Source: Chiloscyllium plagiosum (taxonomy: Eukaryota). From it: 64,000 nt of DNA. A model generated the notes under the pieces. The model searched no databases, was not told the origin of the DNA, and saw only the letters and a list, made by a program, of their open reading frames with translations. Of the stretch, positions 8,262 through 63,800 are shown in pieces. The translations under genes were made by a program, and so were the position numbers. Location of the stretch: assembly GCF_004010195.1 (NCBI RefSeq), contig NC_057755.1, positions 11,996,438-12,060,437 of the forward strand, written 5' to 3'. The stretch's first letter is position 1. Each line of letters begins with the position of its first letter.

Positions 8262-8319
8262 GTAAAGTTGTCTTCATTTGACAGCAGGTGGATGCTAGTA
8301 ATCAATATGTCTGGATCAC

Positions 8320-8635
8320 TCAGTGCCGTGACCTCTGTGTGGAGTCATTGTTCTGTGCCGTGACCTCTGTGTGGTGACGTTAGTCTGTGCCGTGACCTCT
8401 GTGTGGCGACATTCGTCTGTGCAGTGATTGGTAGGTTGAGGCGTTGGTCCGTGCAGTGACTGGTAGGTGGAGGCATTGGTCAGTGATGTGACCAGTGTGT
8501 AGGGGATTGTTTAGTACAGGGTTTTGTGTGTTTGTGTGGAGGGGGGTCTGGTCAGTGCAGGATGTGTGTATGAGGGATTGGTCAGTGCAGTGACTGATAC
8601 GCTGGGCGGGAGGTGGTGTTGGTCAGTGCAGTGAG
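8320..8635 (+). repeat. Diverged ~31-34 bp minisatellite units just downstream of exon 2
   Basis: Repeated tgtgccgtgacctctgtgtgg and ttggtcagtgcagtgac motifs, related to the 9525-10481 array. Confidence 0.75.
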
Positions 8636-9059
8636 CACAGAAAAAGCCCTTTGGCCCATTTAGTCTGCACTGACACAACTATCACTAAAGGTGCACTAAT
8701 CACAGTTTCCTGCATGTGACCGTATTCTTCAGGATACAATTCCACCATTATCTCCTTGCTCTTATACTCTATGCCATGACTGATGAAAGTAAGTGTCCTA
8801 TAATGCTCTCTTAACTATCCTATTTACGTCCCTGCCGACCTCTGGGATATATCAGTAATCACTCCGAGATCTGTCTGTTCCTCTAAGCAACCCAGTGTCC
8901 TGCCATTCATTAGATATTCCCTCATCTGTTTCTTCCAAAGTGCATCACCTCACAGTTATCATGGTTAAATACCATCTGCCACTGGTCTGCCCATCTGATC
9001 AACCCACTTATATGTTCCATCTTCTTCATTCCTAACCACTCTATCAAGGTTGCTTAGTA

Positions 9060-9524: not shown

Positions 9525-10481
9525 ACCATTGTGCCTGTGTGGATTGGTCAGTGCGGTGACCGTTATGCGAGTTAGGATTAATCAGTGCAGTGACCGTTGG
9601 GCCTTTGTGGATTGGTCAGTGCGGTGACCATTGTGCCTGTGTGGATTGGTCAGTGCGGTGACCATTGTGTGTGTATGGATTGGTCAGTGCGGTGACCATT
9701 GTGCGTGTGTGGATTGGTCAGTGCAGTGACCGTTATGCGTGTTTGGATTAATCAGTGCAGTGACCGTTGGGCCTTTGTGGATTGGTCAGTGCGGTGACCA
9801 TTGTGCGTGTTTGGATTAATCAGTGCAGTGACCGTTGGGCCTTTGTGGATTGGTCAGTGCGGTGACCATTGTGCGTGTGTGGATTGGTCAGTGCAGTGAC
9901 CATTGTGCGTGTTTGGATTGGTCAGTGCAGTGACCGTTGGGCCTATTTGAATTAATCAATGCAGTGACCATTGTGCGTGTGTGGATTGGTCAGTGCGGTG
10001 ACCATTGTGCGTGTGTGGATTGGTCAGTGCGGTGACCATTGTGCGTGTGTGGATTGGTCAGTGCGGTGACCATTGTGCGTGTGTGGATTGGTCAGTGCGG
10101 TGACCATTGTGCGTGTGTGGATTGGTCAGTGCGGTGACCATTGTGCGTGTGTGGATTGGTCAGTGCGGTGACCATTGTGCGTGTGTGGATTGGTCAGTGC
10201 GGTGACCATTGTGCGTGTGTGGATTGGTCAGTGCGGTGACCATTGTGCGTGTGTGGATTGGTCAGTGCGGTGACCATTGTGCGTGTGTGGATTGGTCAGT
10301 GCGGTGACCATTGTGCGTGTGTGGATTGGTCAGTGCGGTGACCATTGTGCGTGTGTGGATTGGCCAGTGCGGTGACCATTGTGCATGTGTGGATTGGCCA
10401 GTGCGGTGACCATTGTGCGTGTGTGGATTGGTCAGTGCGGTGACCATTGTGCATGTGTGGATTGGTCAGTGCAGTGACCAG
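9525..10481 (+). repeat. 34-bp minisatellite, about 28 copies
   Basis: Unit accattgtgcgtgtgtggattggtcagtgcggtg; near-perfect from ~9965 to 10440, with variant units at the 5' side. Confidence 0.97.
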
Positions 10482-12504
10482 TGATTGGTCTGATAGAGTG
10501 TGGAAAACATTAATACGTTGCATTGTCTATAAGAAGATGAAATTATCCATTTTCACAACAATGAGAGAGTGGAGAGATCTGATTGTCCTGTGTAGTCGAG
10601 GTTAGTATGCAATTCAGCTAGTAATTATACAAAAGCCAAAAGCATATTAGTGATTATTGTGAGGGAAATTGTCTACAAAAATAAAAATTTTGTGTTTCAG
10701 TTATAGAGGATGCAGGTAAGATCGCATTTGCTGTACTGTGTGCAGTATTAGTATATAACTATGTTGGAGGCAGTTCATGAAGGTTTGCCAACTTGTAACT
10801 TCAATGGGTAGTTAATTTTGAGGAAAGGTGGACAGGCTAGGGTTCAGAAGAATAAAAGCAGCTCAATCTGACAATGTCAGTGTGGAGAGGATGTTTCCTC
10901 TTATTGGAGATTCCAGAAATAGACTATTTAAAAAGGTGTCACTCACTTAAGACAGCTGTGAGGTGAAATTCTTTTTCTGGAGGTCATGAATCTTTGAAAC
11001 TCTCTTCCTGAAAAGACAGTGGAAGCAGAGTCTTTGAAAATTTTTAAGGCAGAGATAGATCTTGGTAAGCAATTGAGTGAACAATTTAGCAGAAGTAGTG
11101 ACTTAGACCCTTTTTTTTAAAAGGGCATTTGTAAGCAGCTGACTTAATATGACGTAATAGAGTGTTAGAATTAACTCTGCTTGAGTTAAGCAGAGGAAGA
11201 GAGGGGTATTTGATTAACTTTTCCTCAACTAAACAGCTGATTGATAAGTAGGATTAGTGAGTATTTCTAGTCTTTAAAGGGAAAGTAAGGTCTTTATTTT
11301 GTTTTCAGGTCTCTCGACTTTACCTCTTAAAAATACTTTTAAGTATGAGGTGTAGAAAAGTACAACAAAGTGTATTAAAGAGTATAGAAGTGATTAAATT
11401 GAAATAGAAAGATGTCTGGTCAGATGGTGTGTTGCTGCTTGGTGCTGCTAGATACCGTGTTGATCCAGTGTGCATACATCTGTAGCAGCTCAAACAACTT
11501 TGGATTCAAACAGAGGAGCTCAAGTCCGAGCTGTTGTGCCACATGAGGGAGGGAGGGGGAAGTTACCTGGTTGCTTTGTTTCAGGAGGGAGTCATTCCCA
11601 TCTGATTAGATAATTCAGATTTGTCTGTCATCAGGGTCAGGAGTGTGTTACTACTTGTGAAGCAGGAATTGGGACCCTAAGTTGAGGAGGAGAAAACATT
11701 TAGTAGATACTATTGCAATGAGTACTGTCAATGATTAAATTTAAGTCTGAGATACCATTAAAAGGGTTCTAATTGACTGAACATCTTCCAGCATTGTACA
11801 TATGGGATGGAAGCGCAATAACTGTGATCTTAGTAGTCAGGGGTGCTGCGGTGATGACCTTTGATAAATAACTTTTGTTAACTTATGTCTGTGGTCTTGT
11901 GCCAATTTAAATGCTCTGTCTAGGAAATTAATACTTGTATATTTTGGCTTTAAGTTTAATGGAGTGTTCATAATTATTGAGGATATTGGTGAATCTCTGC
12001 TTTTGCTTCATGAGAATTTGTATATTGCATAGGTAAAGAAGGCAATGTTACTACATGACTGCATTGCCTAAAAAATTAATGAGAATGCAGAAGAAATGCC
12101 TACAAATCAAAATGTAGCCCTTGAGAAAATGTCAAAGACCCCTCAAAAATAAGTGTTAACCATTCAGTACGTAAAGTCCCATTGCATGCTGAGCGAAATA
12201 TCTCCCTTGTTGGAGATGGTCATTGTTGTTGTGTGACATAAAAGTCACTTGTCACTTACCAAGCCTTCCTGAATGCACACCCTTTTGCAAGTTAATTCCT
12301 GGCACTTGCCTTGGATTTGACTCTTACGAAATGCCACCATCTCAATATCTATTTATTAAGAATTAACTTAACAGTGAAAGTGATTGGACAACAGCATTAT
12401 CAGCCAGCATTGTTGGGGTAAAGGAATATCAGTGAGGGTGGTTCGAGCTGAGGCCTAGCTAGTCAGTCTTGGGGCTGTGTTTGTGGGCAGAAGATGGTTA
12501 TAAA

Positions 12505-17200: not shown

Positions 17201-17388
17201 GATGTCGGAGAAATAGGGTTTGTTCATTTGGAACTGGCATCCATACTAGGGAAAGTGAAAGGTATTCTGTTGGGATGGTCTACCCCAGAAAGAAAGAAAT
17301 GGGACATTCAAGAAATATACTGCAATTATCATAGGTGACTTTAATCTATGTGTAGATTGGGATCATCAGATTGGAAACAATAGCCTGG

Positions 17389-17710: not shown

Positions 17711-18684
17711 GAACCGTGTTGGGACCAATGTGCTGGCAAATCATATAACTATGGCATGAGACAGGGTTTTAAACTAAATAGTGGGGTGGAAGAGAGTGAT
17801 AGGCAATATTTTAAAAGTAATGAAGCAACATTATATAGGGGCAGCATTTTGAGTATTGATTTCCAAAGACGAGAGTGTGATGCTGGAAAAGCACAGCAAG
17901 GTCAGGCAGCATCCAAGGAGCAGGAGGATCGATGTTTCGGGCATAAGCCCTTTATCGGGAAAGCCTTCCAGCACCACATTCTCCATTCTGATCGCCAGCA
18001 TCTGCAGTCCTCACTTTCTCCTAATGATTTCCAAAGTACGCCAGGATGGGTCAGGACATATGTGCGTACATACAAACAAGAATATGTCAACAGGTAAGGC
18101 CAGATTTTGTCAAAATTATAAATAAAATGGGAGGCCTTGTATATTATAATACAGACAGCATTGTTAGCATAGATAGAGAGAAATATGTACGATCTGACAA
18201 ACATCACAGATATTTGGTTGAAATGTCACCAAGGGAGGACCAGGACAATAATAGGATACCTTTGTAAATTAGGGATGTTAATGCAGTGCTGAAAGATGAC
18301 AGGTTCAAAAGAGCAAGCATCAGTTTGGATAGAGGTAAGAAATAGTAAAGGTAATTTGTCACCTGTGGTTGTAGTTTCTAGACTCCTTAATAGTTCCACT
18401 GTAGAAGAGAATAAGCAGAAAGAAAGAAATGGGACATGCAAAAAATATATTGCGATTATCATGGGTGATTTTAGTCTACACGTAGATTGGGATAATCAGA
18501 TTGGCAACAATAGCCTGGAAAGTAAGTTGGGTGTTTTGTAGGTGATTTCTTAGAGCAAAGCATTCTAGAGTGAACCAGGGAGGACACTTTCCTAGTCTTG
18601 GTCAGAAGCAATGTGACAGGATTAATCAATAACTTCTTGGTAAAGGAGTCTCTAAGGGACGCGAATCACAAAACGATAGAATTA

Positions 18685-24441: not shown

Positions 24442-24693
24442 TCAAAGTTTGTGAGAAGATTTGTAGCTCAGGTGCTCGTTGTTGTGGTTCTGTTCGCCGA
24501 GCTGGGAATTTGCGTTGTAGACGTCTAGTCCCCTGTCTAGGTGACATCCTCAGTGCTTGGGAGCCTCTTGTGAAGCTGGAGGAAAGATCACAGAAGCGCT
24601 TCACAGGAGGCTCCCAAGCACTGAGGATGTCACCTAGACAAGGGACGAAACGTTTGCAACACAAATTCCCAGCTCGGCGAACAGAACCACAAC
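24442..24693. mobile_element. Non-autonomous Penelope pLTR pair in inverted orientation
   Basis: ~97-bp inverted arms (~24481-24577 and ~24598-24693); perfect 15-bp flanking duplication aagcagccctaaaat (24427-24441, 24694-24708). Confidence 0.85.
24618..24657 (+). ncRNA. Minimal type I hammerhead ribozyme motif
   Basis: GCA CUGAGGA U GUC...GAC GAAAC GUU UGC: intact core, stem I GCA/UGC, stem II closed by G-C, palindromic ACGU stem III. Confidence 0.75.
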
Positions 24694-25109: not shown

Positions 25110-28100
25110 AGAATGATGGATGGCAGTTATAGGAAGGGAGAAAAGCTGCAGATACAGTCAGGTGGATGAGTTAACTCCAGGCAAGGTAGGAGAGGTGGGC
25201 AGGTAGTGAAGGAGTTTTCTGTGGCCATCCCCATTTCATACAAGTATGCTGATTTGAAAAATGTGGGGGTGATGGACTCTCAGAGGAATATAGCATGAAC
25301 AGCCAAGTTTCTGGTATCAAGAAAGACTCTAATATAATGAGTACATTGGGTTCCAAGCGAACGATTGTGATAGGGAACTCTGTAGTCAGAGGCACAGATA
25401 GATGTTTCTGCGGCCAGCAGCGAACAATTAGAATGGTGTATCAGGATCAAGGATGTCTCGGGGTGCAGAATGTTCTCAAATGAAGAGGAGCCAGCAGAAG
25501 TTCATTGTACACGTTAGAACCAACAACATTGGAAGGGAAAAGGATGAGATTCTGAAAGGAGAATATAGAAAGTTAGGCAGGAAGTTAAAAAGGAGGTCCT
25601 CAAGGGTAGTAATATCTGGAATACTCCTGGTGCTACAAGCTAATGAGGGTTGGAATAGGAGGACAGAGCAGATGAATGCGTAGCTGAGGAACTGGTATAG
25701 GGGAGAAGGGGTCACATTTCTGGATCATTGGAATCTCTTCTGGAGTAGGGATGAGGCAGGGAGATTTGCCAAAGCTGCTTGAGAGGATTTAAACTAGTAA
25801 GGTTGGGGAGGTGGCAGGGGATGGGACTCTGAGATAGTGAGGAAAGACATCAATCTGAGACTGGTACAGTTGGGAAAAGGAGTGAGTCAAACAGTCAGGG
25901 CAGACAGGGAAAAAGCAGAGAACAGGTAGGACTGATAAATTTACTTCAATACAAAGCAGGTGAACTCAGGGCATGGGTAGGAACATGGGACTGGGATATC
26001 ATAGCAATTACGGAAACATGGCTCAGGGATGGACAGGACTGGCAGCTTAATGTTCCAGGGTACAAATACTAACTGAAGGATGGAAAGGGGGTAAGAGTGG
26101 CATTTTTAGTAAGAGATAGCATTACAGCTGTACTGAGGGAGGATATTCCTGGGAATGCATCCAGGGAAGTTATTTTAGTGAAACTGAGAAATAAGAAAGG
26201 GATAGTCACCTTATTGGGATTGTATTATAGACCCCATAATGGTCAGCAGGAAATTGAAAAACAAATTTGTAAGGAGATCTTAGTTATCTGTAAGAATATT
26301 AGGATGGTTATGGCAGGGGATTTTAACTTCGCAAACATAGACTGGGACTGCCATAGTGCCATAGTTTAGATGGAGAGGAATTTGTTAAGTGTGTAAAAGA
26401 AAATTTTCTGATTCAGTATGCGGATGTACTGACTAGAGAAGATGCAAAACTTGATCTACACTTGGGAAATAAGGCAGGGCAGGTGACTGAGATGTCACTG
26501 GGGAGCACTTTGGGACCAGCGATCTTAATTCTATTAGTTTTACAATAGTGATTGGAAAGAATCTAAAAGTTGAAGTTCTAAATTGGAAGAAGACTAATTT
26601 TGGCGGTCTTAGGCAAAAACTTTCAAAAGCTGACTGGGGACAGATGTTCACAGGTAAAGGGACAGTTGAAAAATGAGAGGCCTTCAAAAATGAGATAACA
26701 GTATATTCCTGTTGGGATGAAAGGAAGGGCTGGTAGGTATAGGGAAACCTGGATGATTAGAGAAATTGAAGTTTTGGTTATGGAAAAGAAGAAAGCATGT
26801 GTCAGTTATAAACCGGAGAGATCAAGCGAATCCTCAGAAAAGTATAAAGGCAGTAGGAGTATGCTTGAGAGAGAAATCAGGAGGGCAAAATGGGGACATG
26901 AGATAGCTTTGGCAAGTAGGGTTAAGGAGAATCCAAAGGGTTTTAATAAATACTTTAAAGGACAAAAGGGTGACAAGGGAGAGAATCGGGCGCCTCAAAG
27001 ATCAGCAAGGCAGCCTGTGTGCAGCCGCAGGAGATGGAGGAGACACCAAACAAGTATTTTGCATCAGTGTTTACTGTGGAAAAGGATATGGAAGATGTAG
27101 AATGTGGGGAAATAGATGGTGACATGTTGAAAAATGTCCATATTACAAAGGAGGAGGTGCTGGATCTCTTGAAGTGGATAAAACACCAGGGCATGATAAT
27201 GCGTAGCCTAGAATTCTGTGGGAAGCTTGAGAAGTGATTGCTGAGCTCCTTGCTGAGATATTTATATCATTGACAATCACAGGTGAGGTGCTGAAAGACT
27301 GGAGGTAGCACTATTTAAGAAAGGTGGTATAGAAAAGCCGGGGAGCTACATACTGGTCAGTGTTGGAGGTTTAGATCAGAGTGGTGCTGGAAAAGCACAG
27401 CTGGAAAAGGTCAGGCAGCATCAGAGGAGAGGGGGGGGGGGCTGGGGAGAATGTAGCAAAGAGTACAATAAGTGAATGGGGGTGGGAATGGAGGTGATCA
27501 GTCAGAGGGGAGGGTGGAACAGATAGGTGGGAAGGGAGATTGGCAGGTAGGACAGGTCATGAGTACTGTGCTGAGCTGGAAAGTTGGAACTGAGGCAAGG
27601 TGAAGGGAGGAGAAATGAGGAAACTGGTGAAGTCCACATTGATGCCCTGGGGTTGAAGTGTTCTGAGGCGGAAGATGAGGCGTTCTTCCTCCAGGCGTCG
27701 GTTGGTGAGGGAGCAGGGGTGGAGGAGGCCCAGGACCTGCATGTCCTCTGCAGAGTGGGAAGGGGAGTTGAAATGTTGGGTCACGGGGCGGTGGGGTTGA
27801 TTGATGCGGGTGTCCCGGAGATGTTCCCTAAAGCACTCTGCTAGGAGGTGTCCAGTCTCCCCAATGTAGAGGAGACTGCATCAGGAGCAATGGATACAAT
27901 AAATGACATTGGTGGATGTGCGAGTGAAACGTTGATGGATGTGGAAGGCTCCTTTGGGGCCTTGGATGGAGGTGAGGGAGGAGGTGTGGGCGCAGGTTTT
28001 GCAATTCCTGCGGTGGCAGGGGAGGGTGCCAGGACAGGAGGGTGGGTTGTTGGAAGCCGTGGACCTGACCAGGTAATCACAGATGTGACCTGTTCTGATT

Positions 28101-43028: not shown

Positions 43029-43364
43029 GTAAGTTTCATTATCCAGTAATGGTTTCATATTATTGACAAGAATGCATATCAGCAATGTTCAGAGCCTTTG
43101 AAGCTTCAACTATGGAAGTGTTTTTCCAGTTGTGTGCTGTGTCCTCTCTAAATGCGCTCCTGAAGCAGCATGGACTCTGCCCAATCCTAGAGTGGTATGA
43201 TCCTTATCTCATTTTCACAGTTTCTGTGAGAATACTTCATTTTTGCAATGTCCCAGAGCTACTTGTAGTGACTCATGCCTTTTTAATCTCAAATTATCCA
43301 AAACTGTTTAGAGATCACTTCCTCCAGTCTTTACTTGATGGGTGACTTGCAGGATGGATGATAC

Positions 43365-43452
43365 TCCACAACCACCTGATGAAGGAGCAGCGCTCGGAAA
43401 GCTAGTGCTTCCAGTAAACATTTGGACTATAACCTTGTGTTGTGATTTTTAA
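43365..43452 (+). mobile_element. Penelope pLTR relic (third family) with hammerhead motif at 43373-43407
   Basis: CAC CUGAUGA A GGAGC-AGC-GCUCG GAAA GC UA GUG. Confidence 0.72.
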
Positions 43453-43507
43453 CCTTGCAGGTTGGAGTCATTGAGAAACACTAAACATGTCATTTATCTG
43501 CACATAG

Positions 43508-43620
43508 GTGAAGAGGAGAGAGACCATCGTGACCAGCTCCAGCAGAAGAGGGCAGAAATAGCCCGGTGTTGGATAAAGTATTGTCTCAATCTGCTGCAGG
43601 ACTCACGCAAGCTGCTCGAG
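43508..43620 (+). CDS. KIFBP: KIFBP coding exon 6 (113 nt)
   Basis: Acceptor ctgcacatag|GT; translates (S)EEERDHRDQLQQKRAEIARCWIKYCLNLLQDSRKLLE, containing the conserved EIARCWIKYCL motif; donor GAG|gtatct; phase 1/0. Confidence 0.94.
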
Positions 43621-43699
43621 GTATCTGCAATGGGAAGATTTCGTAACTAAAACTTTGTGTTTCTCTGTTACAGAGAAAAACCTGTGATCTTAGTGATAG

Positions 43700-44612
43700 G
43701 GCCTTAAACTTCTATAAGATGAGCTGGAGAGTGTAAGAGGACAGCATTCCCTTGACTTCCCTGAAAAAATGGCTAAGAATTGGGGAAAATTTGCACAGTA
43801 TTCCCGCAGGATAAAGACATTGCATCTGGAGATTTCAGATGGGATGGTGATGTTCTATAGCATGTTAATACTAGTAAGGAAGAAGTATTAGCTGTTTTAG
43901 CAAGCATAAAAGTGTATAAATCCTCAGGGCCTGATGAGATGTATCCCAGGCTGCAATGGGAGACAAGGAAGATTGCTGGGGTGCTGGCGGAGATATTTAA
44001 TACTTTGGCCATTGATGAAGTGCCAAATGATTTGAAGATAGTTAATTTGGTTCCTTTGTTCAAGAAGGGATGGACCAGGTAATTACTGGTCAGTTAGTCA
44101 GCGAAATGGATTGGGATCATCAGGAAGAGTTGAAAATCCAATTGAAGAAGGAAGAGGAGGAGAAGGACCAGAGGAGAAAGAGCGCTGTGTTATTTGGATC
44201 CAGTGAAACATTTGATCTGATCCAGTTTGTTGAGGAGAAGGTGAGCTGCATTTACCTTGTAGACTTCAGCAAAGCTTATGTAGGACCCAAAGAATTCTTT
44301 CATCTCGATGACCACAAATGTGATGGAGCATTAGGATCACAGTTTATTATTCAAGGCCCTGGCATTTTTTGAAGAGGACCAAGAGAGGCATTGTCAGGTG
44401 CATAAGAAGCGCATTGACCTGCCAGAAACATTGGTTGGCCAGTTAGTCTGACGTCAGTGGTAGGGAAATTATTGAAAAAAATTTGAGGGGCTGGATTAAT
44501 CAACACTTGGAAAGGGATAGTCGGCACAGATTTCTTTGAGGGCGATCCTGTCTGATTGATTTAATTAATTAAGTTTATTGAAAAGATGACTAAGTATATT
44601 GATGAGGGTAGT
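43700..44612 (+). mobile_element. Old CR1 RT fragment hosting the exon-7 copy
   Basis: KSSGPDEMYP and VPLFKKG...PGNY before 44100; PVSLTSVVGKLLKK resumes after ~44436. Confidence 0.8.
44101..44430 (+). pseudogene. Degenerate partial copy of KIFBP exon 7 within intron 6
   Basis: Aligns by eye to 57225-57592, with 13 mismatches in the first 175 nt, then internal deletions and a frameshift. It lacks the native acceptor. Confidence 0.92.
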
Positions 44613-44614
44613 TT

Positions 44615-44940
44615 ATTTTTTTATTTGTCCATGAGCTGAGGGCATCACTGGCTGACCAACATTTATTGCCCATCCCTAATTGCCCCAAGGGCAGTTGAGA
44701 CAGTCACATGTAGGCCAGACTAGGTAAGGATAGGAGTTTCCTTCCCTAAAAGACAGTAGTGAACCAGATGGGTTTTTCCTGACAATCTATTCATTGTCAT
44801 CATTAGACTCTGAATTCTAGATTTTTTAAAATTGAATTCAAATTCCACCATCTGCCTTGGTGGGATTCGAACCCAGAACATTATCTGGGTCTCTGGATTA
44901 ACAGTCCAGTGATAGGCCACTAGGCCATCAACTCCTCCCA
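44615..44940 (-). mobile_element. tRNA-derived SINE (Deu/SacSINE-like)
   Basis: The minus strand has tggcctagtgg (A-box), gggttcgaatcccacc (B-box) and gatggtggaatttgaattcaat. Confidence 0.65.
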
Positions 44941-45009
44941 GTTGTGGTTTATATGGCTCATGGAATCCAAGACAAAATGGCAGCCTGCATCTAAAATTGG
45001 TTTGCAAAG

Positions 45010-46445
45010 AAATAGCACAGCATAGGAACAGGCCCTTCAATCAATGCTATTGTGCCAAACATGATGCTAAAGTAAACTAATACCTTCTGCCTGCCTATCC
45101 CTCAATTCCTTGCATATTCATGTGCTTATCAAAAAGACCATGAAACGCCCTATCATATCTGCCTCCACCACCACCCCTGGCAGAGCATTCCAGACTCCTA
45201 CCATTGTCTGTATTTAAAAGAATACTTGCCTCTTACATCTCCTTTGAACTTTCCCCATCACCTTAAATGTGCTGCATATTTCAACTCTGGAGGAAAGGAC
45301 TCTGACCATCAACCATGTCTATGCACTTCGTAATTTTGTAGACTTCTGTCAAGTCTGCCACTCCATAGAAAACAACTCGAGTATTTCTAGTTTCCCTTAT
45401 AGCTCAGACCCTCTAATCCTTGCAATATTCTGGTAAACCTCTTCTCCACCCTCTTCAAAGCCTCCACATCCTTCCTGTAATGTGGTAATTGGAATTGAAC
45501 GGAATACTCAGTGTGGCCTAATCAAAATCTTATAAAGCTGCAACATGACTTCCTGACTCTTGTTCTCTATTCCCCACCGATAAGGGCAAAGATGCCATAC
45601 GCCACCTTAACCAATATTTTGTGGCCACTTTCAGGGAGCTATGGACTTGAACCCCAAGATACATCAATGTTGTTCAGGGTCCTCCCATTAACTGCATTCT
45701 TTTCCTTAACATTTGCTGTGCCAAAGTGCAGCACCTCTCCCTTACCCAGATTAAGCTCCATCCACCATTTATCTGCCAATAACTGGAACTGATGTGTATC
45801 CTGCTCTGTCCTTTGACAACCTTCAACACTTTCACACCTCCATTGATATTTGTGTCATATGCAAATTTACTGACCCAGCCATCTGCAGTTTCATCTAAGT
45901 CATTTATACATGGTCCTAGTCAGCATTAGTCACGGATCTCTAGCTTGAAAAACACATTACTACTACACTCTGCCTTCTGTGGGCAAACCAATTCTGAACC
46001 CGAGCGACGAGGTTACCACGGATCATTTGCACCGTAATTGTCTGGATGAGCCTACCATGAGGGACATCTTCGAAAGCCTTACTAAAATCTGTGTAGACAA
46101 CATCCCCTGCTCCACCCTCATTGATCAACTTTGTCACCTTGAAAAATTCAATCAAGTCAGTAAGATATGACCTGTCCTGCAGAAAGCCATGCTGACTGTC
46201 CCAAATGTGTGTAAATCCTGTACCTAAATCCTGTTTCCAACAGCTTCCCAACCACCCATGTGAGACTCACAGGCCTGTAGTTTCCTGGATTATCCCTCTT
46301 CCCATTTTGAACAGATGAACAACACTAGCCACTCGCCAGTCCTCTGGGATCTCTCCAGTGGCTAGCGAGGATACAAAGATCTTGCTCAAAAACCCAGCAA
46401 TTTCCTCTCTTGCCTCTTGCAATAACCTGAGACAGATACCATCAG
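45010..46445 (-). mobile_element. CR1-like LINE RT to 3' end, decayed
   Basis: EDWRVASVVHLFK, SQHGF and DFSKAF motifs. Confidence 0.82.
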
Positions 46446-47780: not shown

Positions 47781-49811
47781 CACCATCAAGCCAGCAGATA
47801 AAGGGGGTGCAATGGTAGTTTGGCGCACTGACCTCTACACCGCTGAAGCCAGACACCAACTCGAAGACACCTCCTACCGCCCCCTCGAGAATGACCCCAC
47901 CCCCCATTACCAAACCATTATCTCCCAGACCATAGAGAACCTCATCACCTCAGGAGATCTCCCACCCACAGCTTCCAACCTCATAATCCGGGAACCCCGC
48001 ACCGCCCCATTCTATCTCCTTCCCAAGATCCACAAGCCTGACCACTCTGGCCGACCCATTGTCTCAGCATGCTCCTGCCCCACTGAACTCATCTCCACCT
48101 ACCTCGACACTGTTCTATCCCCCCCAGTCCAGGAGCTCCCCACATACATTCGAGGCACCACCCACACCCTCCACCTCCTCCAAGACTTCCGTTTCCCCGG
48201 CCCCCAAAGCATCATCTTCACCATGGATATCCAATCCCTCTACACCTCCATCCTCCATGACCAGGGCCTCCAAGCCCTCTGTTTTTTCCTCTCCCGACGT
48301 CCACAACAGTACACTTCCACTGACACTCATTCATTTGGCTGAACTGGTCCTCACCCTTAACAATTTTTCATTCGAATCCTCCCACTTCCTCCAGACCAAA
48401 GGGGTAGCCATGGGCACCTGTATGGGCCCCAGCTATGCCTGTCTGTTTGTTGGCTACGTAGAACAGTCCATCTTTGGTAATTATACCGGCACCATTCCCC
48501 ACCTCTTCCTCTGCTACATTGATGACTGCATCGGCGCCACCTCGTGCTCCCACGAGGAGGTTGAGCAATTCATCAACTTCACCAACACATTCCACCTGAA
48601 CCATCTCTGCCACCTCCCTCCCTATCCTGGATCTCTCCATCTCCATTAATGACGACTGACTTGACACTGACATTTTTTACAAACCCAACGACTCCCACAG
48701 CTATCTGGATTACATCTCTTCCCACCCTACCTCCTGCAAAAATGCTATCCCGTATTTCCAATTCCACCGCCTCTGCCGTATCTGCTTCCAGGAGGACCAG
48801 TTCCACCACAGAACACACCAGATGGCCTCCTTCTTTAGAGACTGCAATTTCCCTTCCCACGTGGTTAAAGGTGCCCTCCAACACATCTCGTCCACACCCC
48901 GCACCTCTGCCCTCAAACCCCACTCCTCCATCTGTAACAAGGACAGAACCCCTCTGGTGCTAACCTTCTACCCTACCAACCACATCATCCGCCGTCATTT
49001 CTGCCACCTACAAACAGACCCCACCACCAGGGATATATTTCCCTCCTCACCCCTTTCCGCTTTCTGCAAAGACTGTTCCCTCCGTGACCACCTGGTCAGG
49101 TCCACGCCCCCCAACAACCCACCCTCCCGTCCTGGCATCTTCCCCTGCCACCGCAGGAATTGCAAAACCTGCGCCCACACCTCCTCCTTCACCTCCATCC
49201 AAGGCCCCAAAGGAGCCTTCCACATCCATCAAAGTTTTACCTGCACATCCNNNNNNNNNNNNNNNNNNNNNNNNNNNNNNNNNNNNNNNNNNNNNNNNNN
49301 NNNNNNNNNNNNNNNNNNNNNNNNNNNNNNNNNNNNNNNNNNNNNNNNNNNNNNNNNNNNNNNNNNNNNNNNNNNNNNNNNNNNNNNNNNNNNNNNNNNN
49401 NNNNNNNNNNNNNNNNNNNNNNNNNNNNNNNNNNNNNNNNNNNNNNNNNNNNNNNNNNNNNNNNNNNNNNNNNNNNNNNNNNNNNNNNNNNNNNNNNNNN
49501 NNNNNNNNNNNNNNNNNNNNNNNNNNNNNNNNNNNNNNNNNNNNNNNNNNNNNNNNNNNNNNNNNNNNNNNNNNNNNNNNNNNNNNNNNNNNNNNNNNNN
49601 NNNNNNNNNNNNNNNNNNNNNNNNNNNNNNNNNNNNNNNNNNNNNNNNNNNNNNNNNNNNNNNNNNNNNNNNNNNNNTGTATTCCTGATGAAGGTCTTGT
49701 GCCCGAAACGCAATTTTCCTGTTCCTTGGATGCTGCCTGACCAGCTGTGCCTTTCCAGCACCACTCTAATCCAGACTCAGGTTTCCAGCATCTGCAATCT
49801 TCATTCTTACC
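47781..49811 (+). mobile_element. Penelope-like element (first family), 5'-truncated, spanning the assembly gap
   Basis: IKPADKGGA, FYLLPKIHKP...GRPIVS, MDIQSLYT, KGVAMGT.MGPSYA, YIDD and PCHRRNCKTC motifs; pLTR with hammerhead-like motif at 49680-49712. Confidence 0.9.
49251..49677. other. Assembly gap (427 N)
   Basis: Run of N characters. Confidence 1.
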
Positions 49812-56543: not shown

Positions 56544-56878
56544 AGGTAAAAACAATGACTGCAGATGCTGGAAACCAGAGTCTAGATTAGTTCCAAACTT
56601 CCAGCTCAGCACTGTCCCCATGACTTGTCCTACCTGCCTGTCTTCTTTTCCACCTATCCACTCCACCCTCCCCTGACCTATCACCTTCGTCCCCTCCCCA
56701 CTCACCTATTGTACTCTATGCTACTTTCTCCCCACCCCCACCCTCCTCTCACTTATCTCTCCACCCTTCAGGCTCTCTGCCTGTGTTCCTGCTGAAGGGC
56801 TTTTGTCCGAAACGTCGATTTTACTGCTCGTCGGATGCTGTCTGAACTGCTGTGCTTTTCCAACACCACTCTAATCTA
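56544..56878 (+). mobile_element. Solo Penelope pLTR with a short inverted 5' piece
   Basis: 20-bp flanking duplication gactcagcacacatctgagt (56524-56543, 56879-56898); hammerhead-like ctgctga-agggcttttgtcc-gaaacgtc at ~56789-56817. Confidence 0.82.
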
Positions 56879-57214: not shown

Positions 57215-58093
57215 GATGATGTTGGCGAAATGGATTGGGATCGTCAGGAAGAGTTGAAAATCCGATTGAAGAAGGAAGAGGAGGAGAAGGAGCAGGGGAG
57301 GAAGAGCGCTGTGATGTTTGGATCCAGTGAAACGTTTGATCTGATCCAGTCTATTGAGGAGAAAGTGAGCTGCGTTTACCCTGTAGACTTCAGCAAAGCA
57401 CGAGATGTGTTCTTGGTTGGGCAAAACTACGTGCAGGAGGCCAAAGAATTCTTTCAGCTGGATGACCATGTAACAGACCATATTGAGGTGGTTCAGGACC
57501 ACAGTGCATTATTTAAGGTCCTGGCATTTTTTGAAGAAGACCAAGAAAGGCGTTGTAAGATGCACAAACGGCGCATTGACATGCTGGAAGCAGTCTATAC
57601 AGAGTTAAATCCACAGTATTACCTCTTGGTCTGCCGGCAGCTTCAATTTGAGATAGCAGACACATACTATGAAATGATGGAGCTGAAAGTCTCTATTGCC
57701 AATCGGCTGGATGAATTAGATAGTCACAACATCAAGAAAATAAACCACCTCGCGCAGTCAGCCATTATGTACTACACCCTCTTCTTAGACTCACTGAAGA
57801 ATTCAGAGAAGAAATTTCCAGAGAGGCTGGAAGCTGATGTCTTGCGACCAGCACTAGTTTGCAAGTTTCGCATTGGTTGGTTGTACAGTAAAATGATCAC
57901 TTCAGACCCAAAGCTACAGCTCACCAACCTGCAGCAGTCGGTGGAGTGTTACCGCTTTGTGGTGGATTACTGCGAGATACAGCCTGAGGCCGCCAAGGTG
58001 ATGGAACCTGAGCTGGAGCTCTGTGTTGAGATGGCCACCCTCTTGCCAGCAAGGATGGAGAAATTAAAGGCTAAAATAGCCGCTTTTTCTTAA
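57215..58093 (+). CDS. KIFBP: KIFBP terminal coding exon 7
   Basis: Acceptor tctttctccatag|GAT; translates DDVGEMDW...DHIEVVQDHSALFKVLAFFEEDQERRCKMHKRRIDMLE...LNPQYYLLVCRQLQFEIA...KIAAFS*, the KBP C-terminal helical region. The frame is open to TAA. Confidence 0.97.
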   Translation, partial: DDVGEMDWDRQEELKIRLKKEEEEKEQGRKSAVMFGSSETFDLIQSIEEKVSCVYPVDFSKARDVFLVGQNYVQEAKEFFQLDDHVTDHIEVVQDHSALFKVLAFFEEDQERRCKMHKRRIDMLEAVYTELNPQYYLLVCRQLQFEIADTYYEMMELKVSIANRLDELDSHNIKKINHLAQSAIMYYTLFLDSLKNSEKKFPERLEADVLRPALVCKFRIGWLYSKMITSDPKLQLTNLQQSVECYRFVVDYCEIQPEAAKVMEPELELCVEMATLLPARMEKLKAKIAAFS

Positions 58094-60889: not shown

Positions 60890-63800
60890 TAAAATACAGG
60901 AGCAGAATTAGGCATTTGTCCATCGTACTGCTGCACCATTCACTCTTGGCCTATATGTTTCTCAATGCCATTCTTCTGTCTTCTCCCACTGTCCCTTTAT
61001 CTTCTTTCTAATCAACAACCTATGTATCTTAAATACATTCAATGCCTTGGTCTCCACACCCATATGCGGCAGTGCACTCCAGATTCATCACCCTCTGGCT
61101 GAAGAAATTCCTCCTCATCACTGTTCTAAAAGGTCCTCCCTTCACTCTTGAGTCTGAACCCTCAGGTCCTAGTCTATCCTACTAGTGGAAACATCTCTGT
61201 CCATTCCATACAGGCCCCTCAGTATCCTTTACATTATGAGATTCCATCATCCTTCAAACTCCACTGATTACAGATCCAGAGTCTTCAACCACTCCTCAGA
61301 TGACAAGTCCTTCATCCTGTTTCCACACTGTAGGGAATCTTATCCCAGGACTATTCTCGTAAAGTTCCTCTTACCCCATCCAATACCAGCACATCTTTCC
61401 TGACATCCGGATCCCAAAACCACTCCTCAGATGACAAGTCCTTCATCCTGTTTCCACACTGTAGGGAATCTTATCCCAGGACCATTCTTGTAAAGTTCCT
61501 CTTACCCCATCCAATACCAGCACATCTTTCCTGACATCCGGATCAGCACATCTTTCCTGACATCCGGATCCCAAAACTGCTTTCAGTATTCCAAATGCAG
61601 CCTCTGCAGTATATTTCTGTTGTTACATTCTAGCCCTCTTGAAATGAAAGCTGACATCACACTTGTTTTCCTAATTGCTAACTAAATGTGCATGTTAACT
61701 GAAAAGAGAATCCTGAACTTTGATTCCTAGGTCCCTTTATGCTTTAGATTTCTGAAGCCTTTCTCCTAATAGAAAAGCGCCTACATTACTTCCTACCAAA
61801 ATCCATAACCTCTCACTTTTCTACATTGTATTCCATCTGCCTCTTCTTTATCCATCCTCCTAGCCTGTCCAAGTCCTTCCGGAGCCTTCTCACATTCTCA
61901 ACAATACTACCTAGCTTTGTATCATCTGTAAGTTTAGCATCAATGCCTTCAGTTCGTTTGCTCGGATCGTTAATGTATAACATGAATAGTCCAAATGTTG
62001 AACCCTGCAGAACTCTAGTAGTCACCAGCTGCCATCATGAAAAAGACCTCTTTATCCCCACTCCTTTTCTTTAGTGAGTCAGCTAGTAAATATATTGATA
62101 ATATATAATAATATAGTAATATCTGTGCATGCCAATACCTTATCTCTATAACTAGGCTCTTATTAAGCAGGCTTCTCTGCAGCACCTTGTCAAAGGCCTT
62201 CTGAAATTTCGAATAGATGTTAAGTCCACTGGCTCTCCTTTGTCTATCCTGCTCATTACCTACTCAAAGAATCTTAACAGATTTGTCAGGTATGACCTCC
62301 CCTTGATGAAGCTGTGCTGATTCAGCCCTATTTTACCATGAACTTCAAAATACCCCGCAATCTGATGCTTAATAATGGACTCTTGACTGAGGTCAGGCTT
62401 AACTGGTCTATAATGTCTTGCTTTCTCCTCCTTCCCTTCTTAAACAGAAGTGTTATGTTAGCCATTTTCCAGTCCTATGGGAGCTTCCCTGACTCCAATG
62501 AGTCCTGAAAGATCACCACCAATGCCTCCACGATCTCCCCCACTATCTCCTTTAGAACCCTGAGTACAGTTCATCTGGTGTAGATTTATGTGCGTTCAGA
62601 CCTTCAAGCTTCCTCACACTTACTCCTTAGTAATAACCACTACAATTTCCAAATCCCTGCCCCCGAATGTCTTGAAGTTCTTGTATTTTGCTGGTGTCTT
62701 CCACCATGAAGACTGTTGCAAAATACATATTCACTTCCTCTGCCATTTCTTTGTTCCCCATTATTACTTCTCCAGCTTCATTTTCCAGTGGTTGAATATC
62801 TACTCTTGCCTCTCTCTTACCTTTTATATATCTTTAAAAAAAGCTTTTGTCGTCGCCTTTTATATTACGAACTAGCTTTCTATCATGTTTCATCTTCTCC
62901 TACAAAACCACCTGCCCCCTCCCCCGCCAAAGATTGCTTTATTGGAGTTGTCCTCCACTGGTGTTAAAGGCTTCCTAATCCTCTAACTTCCCACTAATCT
63001 TCACCACATTGTTTTTTCTTTTGCTTTTATGCTGACTTATCAGCCTTGGCCTTCCCCAGTATGTTTCTTCTTCTTTGGGATGAATGTCTACTCTGCTTCC
63101 CAAATTACCCCCAGAAACTCCCAGCCATTGCTACTCCATCATCTTCCCTACTAAGCTCCCCTTCTAATCGTTTCTGGTCAGGATCTTTGTAGTTACATTT
63201 ACTCAATTGTAATACTGTTGTATTTGATTCCAGCTTCTCCCTTTTAACCTGCAAGATGAAATCTGTCATATGGTCACTGCCTCCAGGGGTTCCTTCACCT
63301 TAGCTCCCTAATCACATCTGCTTCATTACACATTACCAGAAACATAATTGCCTATTTGCCTCTACCACAAAAAAAACCGTCTTGTAAACATACACAAATT
63401 CCTTTTCTTGGGATCTGCTGCCAACCCAATTTTCCCAGTCCTGAACTCTCCCATGATCATTTTAATAGGGCTTTTCCTACATGCCTTTTCTATCTCATGA
63501 TTTATTTTCTGCCCCTAGTAGTGCTAGGAGGTCTGCACCTAAGTCCCACCAGGGAGCTTTTTCCTTCACAGTTCCTGAACTCTATTCATACAGATTCTAT
63601 GCCTTCCAACTTTATATTACTTCTTGTTATCGATTTAATTTCATTTCTAACAAGGCAACAGTCTGTGCATCTGCCTGTTCTTTCAATAGGATGCATTTCC
63701 TTGGATATTTAATTCCTCTCGCAGCCATGTCTCTATTATACCTACAACATTGCACCTGCCAATTTCAATCTGCTATACAAGTTAATTTACCTTGTTTCAT

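Follow-up and report, generated by a model that had tools for sequence, protein, structure and literature searches.

How part of a coding exon came to lie in the preceding intron of its own gene, between two short repeats inside a retroelement relic, is the question raised by this locus. We searched the window (the whole stretch of 64,000 nucleotides that was analysed) with shark KIFBP proteins by tblastn. The results showed KIFBP as seven exons on the + strand, spanning ~55 kb; exon 7 starts at 57215, and its product shares 91% identity with the white shark protein. The KIFBP introns are rich in CR1 relics, and a repeat fraction of 0.75 obtained for these introns by tblastx was discarded as seemingly inflated. 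The features of the locus are the following.

43508..43620, + strand: KIFBP exon 6 (tblastn of shark KIFBP proteins; mRNA contigs at 43508-43621)
43691..44099, + strand: left part of the host CR1-type LINE relic, up to and including the first 13-mer (blastn/tblastn to CR1 relics of the window; start approximate)
44087..44099, + strand: left copy of the 13-bp duplication
44101..44430, + strand: degenerate copy of exon 7 57225-57592 (blastn, alignment)
44101..44275, + strand: 5' block of the copy, ungapped, 13/175 mismatches, a candidate gene-conversion tract
44335..44430, + strand: 3' block of the copy, ungapped, 18/96 mismatches, 8 of them synonymous
44431..44435, + strand: 5-nt junction filler, matching neither side in register
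44436..44448, + strand: right copy of the 13-bp duplication
44436..44615, + strand: right part of the host CR1 relic, where the same reading frame motif continues
44620..44940, strand not given: high-copy element interrupting the same CR1 relic (contig depth of thousands)
57215..58093, + strand: coding part of KIFBP exon 7, donor of the copy (57225-57592)

The exon 7 copy and its flanks

In blastn, 44101-44430 of intron 6 aligned to 57225-57592 of exon 7 (287/370 identities, 78% with gaps, E 1e-84), at the coordinates given in the initial annotation, and the alignment reproduced the 13 mismatches in the first 175 nt and the two deletions after them that it had described. The deletions (~29-30 nt and ~8 nt, with exact edges that vary with gap penalties) leave the copy a net 38 nt short, and the first is flanked by 7-bp imperfect repeats. 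CpG decay had been suggested for several of the mismatches; this fits 4 of the 13 when they are compared with today's exon, but at 44140 it was the gene that changed, and the copy is ancestral.

The copy is confined to one exon. Its start lies 10 nt inside the exon as reported (57225 against an exon start of 57215), and if the junction trinucleotide is a shared microhomology, the copy probably starts at 44097/57221 rather than at 44101/57225; its edge is thus 7-10 nt short of the splice acceptor. At the other end it stops within the coding sequence, at codon 126 of 292, with neither an A tract nor a poly(A) signal. Neither intronic nor UTR sequence accompanies it, which bears out the earlier description of these edges. 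The insert between the 13-mers measures 336 nt, all but 6 of which align to exon 7, and the copy, the host gene KIFBP and the host CR1 all have one sense (+). The donor distance had been put at 13 kb; the donor does lie nearby in the same gene, but the figure is approximate only, with an assembly gap of 427 N (49251-49677) in intron 6 between the copy and exon 7. The 170 bp preceding this gap match 27914-28083 in inverted orientation (92%).

The two 13-mers, 44087-44099 and 44436-44448, bracket the copy as first stated and differ by one mismatch. Their motif is single in three uninterrupted CR1 paralogs of the window, as it is in two paralog contigs of run X5 (organism A, the same species as the window), which join 44065-44069 directly to 44439-44440. 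Repeats of this kind are not rare, with at least 318 pairs matching at 12 or more of 13 positions at distances of 60-3000 bp, many of them from one satellite; the chance of such a repeat at exactly these two junctions is ~2e-4.

Apart from the 13-mer, the flanks are consecutive parts of one element, confirming that the copy interrupts a relic, which we take to be CR1 from its motifs and the initial annotation; three peptides submitted to Pfam matched no family above the cut-off. The ends of the relic are eroded and interrupted, and beyond the high-copy element, weak alignments and the translated sequence suggest that the CR1 goes on from ~44941-45010. The two flanks are equally diverged from the window paralogs (22/113 and 23/104), and the relic differs from one paralog contig in 22 of 155 letters. 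The first letter of both 13-mers is T, while A was found in 5/5 inspected paralogs (three in the window, two in contigs), which is mild evidence that the CR1 may have been resident and mutated before the duplication.

These flanks bear on the possibility that the copy is the eroded remnant of a larger tandem duplication of the KIFBP 3' end, reduced by deletions between unrelated CR1 pieces. The density of CR1 relics and the age of the copy (see below) would suit such a history. However, the flanking pieces are neighbours in one element and equally diverged, single paralog contigs align on both sides of the insert, and nothing from introns or UTRs was copied, so that we regard this origin as scarcely credible. 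Within the window there was no second copy of exons 1-6.

At the left junction, a single base separates the 13-mer from the copy. The letters of copy and exon at this point disagree as they would if one ancestral CpG had decayed independently in each, which would give a 3-nt microhomology; this CpG was not seen in organisms A, B and C, all of which carry the present exon letters there. At the right junction there was no microhomology in register. The filler together with the next 3 nt matches 57413-57420 of exon 7, which belongs to the stretch that the copy has lost, with a chance of 0.05-0.08 (50 of 1023 random fillers did as well against the donor, and 82 of 1023 with flanks). The exon and the right 13-mer also match in register over 5 nt, but away from the junction, and this was taken as chance.

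Further elements were recorded elsewhere in the window. At 43359-43453, ~40 nt upstream of the exon 6 acceptor, lies a Penelope-like mini-element of 95 bp that bears a hammerhead and is flanked by a 13-bp repeat. Single-cell reads of its family are abundant in run X21; many of them stop at 43413 with a poly(A) signal and an A tail, and they probably come from copies elsewhere. Another Penelope-like insert, 334 bp long and flanked by a repeat of 20-21 bp (56544-56877), lies ~320 nt before the exon 7 acceptor, and a 248-bp insert with a 19-bp direct flanking repeat (24442-24689), whose ends are like long inverted arms, resembles Penelope-type inverted insertions. A 103-bp direct duplication (17286-17388 and 18416-18518, 88%) surrounds a 1.1-kb block with a SINE-like and a hammerhead-type element. 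Intron 2 of KIFBP contains a 34-bp minisatellite (9525-10483) and a degenerate related array (8308-8637) that starts ~45 nt past the exon 2 donor, and downstream of KIFBP there is a near-perfect (98%) 127-bp tandem duplication (61287-61544).

Presence, transcription and age of the copy

Four of 24 runs (X5, X16, X19 and X21) were compared with the window, and 14 of the 24 contained at least half of the words sampled from 43400-44700. In X5, one contig (43595-44130, 3 differences) bridged the left junction and another (44110-44731, 2 differences) the right one; in X16 (organism B), a contig of low depth (2.8) bridged the left junction (43943-44176, 1 difference). None of the contigs listed for organism C crosses either junction, and we infer that the copy is present there. 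The results confirm that the copy and its two 13-mers in the CR1 relic are real sequence. An assembly artefact, to which the N gap in the same intron might point, has a negligible probability: contigs from two runs cross the junctions, and a collapse is excluded because no exact match between the copy and exon 7 is longer than 27 bases. At 44177, the X5 contig has G, the letter of today's exon, and the window has A, the letter of the organism C exon; this polymorphism may reflect recurrent mutation or a very short recent conversion.

A separate question, of function and not of origin, is whether the copy serves as an alternative last exon. An AG at 44092-44093 would be in frame with exon 6 and give ~93 codons, the frame from 44097 is open to a stop ~92 codons on, the 5' block is the better preserved one, and intron 6 contigs occur in X5 at depth 10-22. 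However, this AG has no preceding pyrimidine tract, 44100-46000 contains neither AATAAA nor ATTAAA, the intron depth continues to 46000 without an end, and of the 7 changes that the 5' block gained on the copy side, at least 5 are amino-acid replacements, 4 of which hit residues invariant in 7/7 outgroups. The sole exon 6 joint listed leads to the true exon 7 with its start and letters. This joint ranked ahead of 239 weaker ones outside the listing, at depths of 211 in X5, 155 in X16 and 307 in X19, and it carries nine bases of the true exon 7 start that are missing from the copy; among the joints listed for these three contig sets, none splices exon 6 to the copy. As the spliced exon 6-7 joint is present, X5 contains RNA, and the depth of its intron contigs is as for pre-mRNA or carried-over DNA. 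In the raw single-cell run X21, of which ~2 in 100 reads were examined, depth on the copy was below 4 per bin and the reads displayed had exon letters; exon reads mis-map onto such copies at relaxed identity. Use as a last exon is thus very improbable, and the copy is most likely unused and functionless.

The age of the copy was assessed against seven shark and ray proteins as outgroups. At codons 17, 34, 47 and 102 the outgroup residue survives in the copy and has been replaced in today's exon, the gene probably also changed at codons 54 and 126, and the ancestral residue of the copy at 44140 is found in 6/7 of the proteins. After copying, KIFBP gained 4-6 amino-acid changes in the 126 copied codons. 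In the mRNA of organism C, 44140, 44190 and 44250 show the derived state of the gene, whereas it has the copy's letters at 44177, 44210, 44229 and 44306; at these four listed sites of difference between C and A/B, agreement of C with the copy places the changes on the A/B side, judging by the letters compared. The exon 7 of organism C differs from the copy in 31 letters and that of organism B in 36. Since the gene changed after copying and before organisms A and C split, the copy is old and appears to predate that split. Copy and gene also share M at codon 6 and S at codon 60, which occur in 0/7 outgroups; every one of these lineage-specific residues falls in the 5' block, so that the age they indicate may be too young for the insertion. 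We give no year count, as the mutation rate of the epaulette shark is stated per generation with a tenfold interval (PMC10587355). Dating of the CR1 from the window paralogs was rejected, all being 18-26% from the majority and too divergent, and invariant-column counts for CR1 (0/13, 3/56) were dropped as biased.

Divergence is uneven along the copy. The 5' block had significantly fewer mismatches than the 3' block (13/175 vs 18/96, Fisher p 0.009) and fewer synonymous-site differences (3/31 vs 8/18, p 0.010), and copy-side non-synonymous changes numbered 5/144 vs 8/78 (p 0.068). In a permutation over all split points p was 0.044, with the best split near 44385, away from the block edge. Two divergence times are the simpler account, because error-prone synthesis would not favour synonymous sites, and it is moderately supported that the 5' block was re-homogenised once by conversion from exon 7 and the 3' block was not. 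Recombination drops sharply as uninterrupted homology declines from ~230 to ~130 bp (PMC2583991). With such uneven divergence, overall identity cannot date copies of this kind.

Alternatively, an ordinary retrocopy, truncated and primed internally, might have landed in its parent gene by chance, or a fragment of a KIFBP pseudogene located elsewhere might have done so. The gene makes up only ~55 kb of a multi-gigabase genome. The residues M6 and S60 tie the copy to this gene, and in the best 120 of 380 protein matches, cartilaginous fishes contributed only KIF-binding protein and no separate paralog family. In its favour, a wide scan is bound to meet rare coincidences, an intermediate KIFBP pseudogene could lie elsewhere, the search having covered the window, and cartilaginous fishes hold 14,081 retrocopies over the surveyed species (bioRxiv 10.64898/2026.06.26.734816). 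We consider this origin improbable; because random retro-insertion into its own 55-kb gene would be very unlikely, a mechanism acting in cis appears to be needed.

RNA or DNA as template

The initial annotation had proposed a locally templated insertion that is neither a standard processed pseudogene nor a segmental duplication, and our results support this; that account included neither the age of the copy, nor its uneven divergence, nor template switching by the host CR1 as it integrated. The copy, its source, the 12-13 bp CR1 duplication, the presence in other samples and the age relative to gene changes are established; a single-exon donor bears no mark of either RNA or DNA as template, so that the choice between the two is a matter of likelihood at this locus.

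We favour, at a probability just short of even, an RNA-templated insertion in cis by a retroelement reverse transcriptase, with the nascent KIFBP transcript as template. In a single germline event, a break in intron 6 would have received a copy of ~370 nt of exon 7, made from a nascent transcript that ongoing transcription held near the break. The retroelement enzyme would have synthesised leftwards from the right junction, starting inside the RNA, hence the missing poly(A), and would have halted 7-10 nt short of the splice acceptor, where the left end would have been joined through the 3-nt microhomology. In one version (a), the integrating host CR1 would have jumped to KIFBP RNA and then back, 13 nt behind its departure point, and the 13-mer repeat would be a template back-step instead of a target-site duplication. 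In the other (b), a Penelope or other LINE enzyme would later have nicked the old CR1 and primed on KIFBP RNA, making the 13-mers a true target-site duplication. Under either version, which are about equally likely, the copy would then have decayed, its 5' block possibly re-homogenised once by gene conversion from exon 7.

The wholly exonic donor without intron flank and the single sense of copy, gene and CR1 favour RNA templating in cis, and the ages are compatible with co-integration (copy-side non-synonymous change of 8/78 in the 3' block, CI 4.5-19%, vs 22/155 letters between the relic and one paralog contig). Precedents exist for its steps: in one somatic L1 event the reverse transcriptase switched to a pre-mRNA transcribed near the insertion site (PMC10191854), a LINE reverse transcriptase is capable of double template jumps (PMC2104539), U6 was mobilised by L2 and RTE elements only via template switching (PMC4476161), and a lizard Penelope reverse transcriptase starts internally in its own RNA with no homology to the cut DNA (PMC11167929). 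On the other side, the copy has no exon-exon junction, poly(A) or retroelement tail, and hence no positive mark of RNA, and the left microhomology needs an ancestral CpG that is absent from organisms A, B and C. The U6 study was unable to confirm a CR1 chimera (PMC4476161), and pre-mRNA co-insertion did not appear in the accessible text of bioRxiv 10.1101/2024.12.14.628481.

Each version has its own difficulties. The T that opens both 13-mers, against A in the paralogs, fits a resident, mutated CR1 that was then duplicated, which argues against (a); the relic also took another insertion, so that a later one is unremarkable, and in the published tripartite chimeras there is no return to the first template (PMC2104539). 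For (b), no Penelope sequence is attached to the insert, and the tested Penelope enzyme requires a binding region in its own RNA (PMC11167929). The analogy with Penelope insertions drawn at the outset holds in so far as six short inserts in the window likewise lack poly(A) and are flanked by repeats of 13-21 bp, against 13 bp here, a match in length that is biased by the repeat threshold of at least 13 at which the six were found; it fails in that nothing ties the insert to Penelope. A hammerhead pattern was present in 2 of these six and absent from the insert, and a relaxed search of 8 further Penelope-type elements revealed no convincing flanking repeat.

A DNA-templated switch, as FoSTeS x2/MMBIR or as synthesis-dependent end joining at a staggered break, is only slightly less probable than the RNA route. 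Either a 3' end within the old CR1 would have invaded exon 7 ~13 kb off, copied it and rejoined 13 nt upstream of its exit, or a 13-nt overhang would have been filled in on both sides of a staggered break. This would explain the local donor without a special enzyme. Human germline rearrangements include templated inserts of 376 and 815 bp, insertion-site duplications and 1-3 bp microhomologies (PMC5120786, PMC2583991), and staggered breaks yield short tandem duplications without a retroelement (PMC8355091). The filler, with its 8-nt match elsewhere in the donor, resembles repeated priming, the shared first T suggests a resident CR1, and the first deletion lies between imperfect repeats. Exon limits need not bind a DNA donor, yet this donor is wholly exonic and begins no more than 10 nt from the acceptor, a point raised post hoc, and exonic donors are also those that remain recognisable; the shared sense of copy, gene and CR1 is not required by a DNA template.

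Known insertion systems and implications

The insert is a locally templated insertion that fits neither class of the human TSIPs (Onozawa and Aplan 2016, PMC5110952). As that source describes them, both classes are inherited, measure a few hundred bases and are often transcript-derived, as here; their donor is distant, whereas the donor of the insert is ~13 kb off in the same gene and the insert is old and fixed. The short duplication is common to class 1, whose threshold of at least 5 bp is exceeded by the 13-mers, but the insert has no poly(A), no signal and no TTTT/A site; neither 13-mer edge fits a 5'-TTTT/A-3' nick, a motif that serves as a class 1 criterion and may not suit a shark L1. 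Class 2 has extra bases, as the insert has in its 5-nt filler, and microhomology, which is hypothetical at the insert; it differs in having no duplication.

In the L1 insertion of Nam et al. 2023 (PMC10191854), the transcript of the gene at the insertion site likewise lies inside a LINE. That case is one somatic human L1 event, whereas here a germline shark CR1 is present on both sides with a 13-nt repeat, and the copy may or may not have integrated together with the host CR1. The tripartite LINE chimeras of Gogvadze et al. 2007 (PMC2104539) also join three segments in one sense, but from three different templates and with the duplication around the whole; in the insert the outer parts are one CR1 and the repeat surrounds the middle. 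FoSTeS/MMBIR events (Gu et al. 2008, PMC2583991; Gu et al. 2016, PMC5120786) share the nearby donor and a length of hundreds of bases, and their 2-5 bp microhomology, filler and site duplication are comparable, the 3 nt at the left of the insert being hypothetical; the published cases accompany large copy-number changes, whereas the insert is a stand-alone 336 bp with a 13-bp repeat. Penelope-like insertions and host genes trans-mobilised by Penelope (Frangieh et al. 2024, PMC11167929; Craig et al. 2021, PMC8557442) resemble it in the missing poly(A) and an internal start of reverse transcription, and in the 13-21 bp flanking repeats of the six short inserts of the window; the insert differs in that it has no pseudo-LTR, hammerhead or tail and no retained intron. 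Local pre-mRNA co-insertion and FoSTeS are published precedents, and the insert is unusual in detail. Our literature queries, which did not include the term KIFBP and covered subscription journals thinly, returned no report of the locus by title or abstract start.

A single dead insert matters little by itself, and this one is most likely a neutral scar. It can serve as a type specimen for a route by which an exon is duplicated within its gene with no intron flanks and no poly(A) left behind. Evidence for nascent-RNA templating has so far come from cell assays and single somatic events, and a genome-wide count of such patches in slowly evolving sharks could test whether germline break repair or retroelement enzymes copy local nascent RNA. 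A fuller course of events, in which the CR1 reverse transcriptase, integrating into a transcribed gene in the germline, left its own RNA, copied the nascent transcript until it was blocked just inside the 3' splice site and returned 13 nt back, and in which copy and parent exon later exchanged sequence by gene conversion, is rather improbable. If it were true and general, stringent LINEs that are unable to make ordinary retrogenes would still duplicate exons within their genes, and retrocopy surveys would miss such exon copies.
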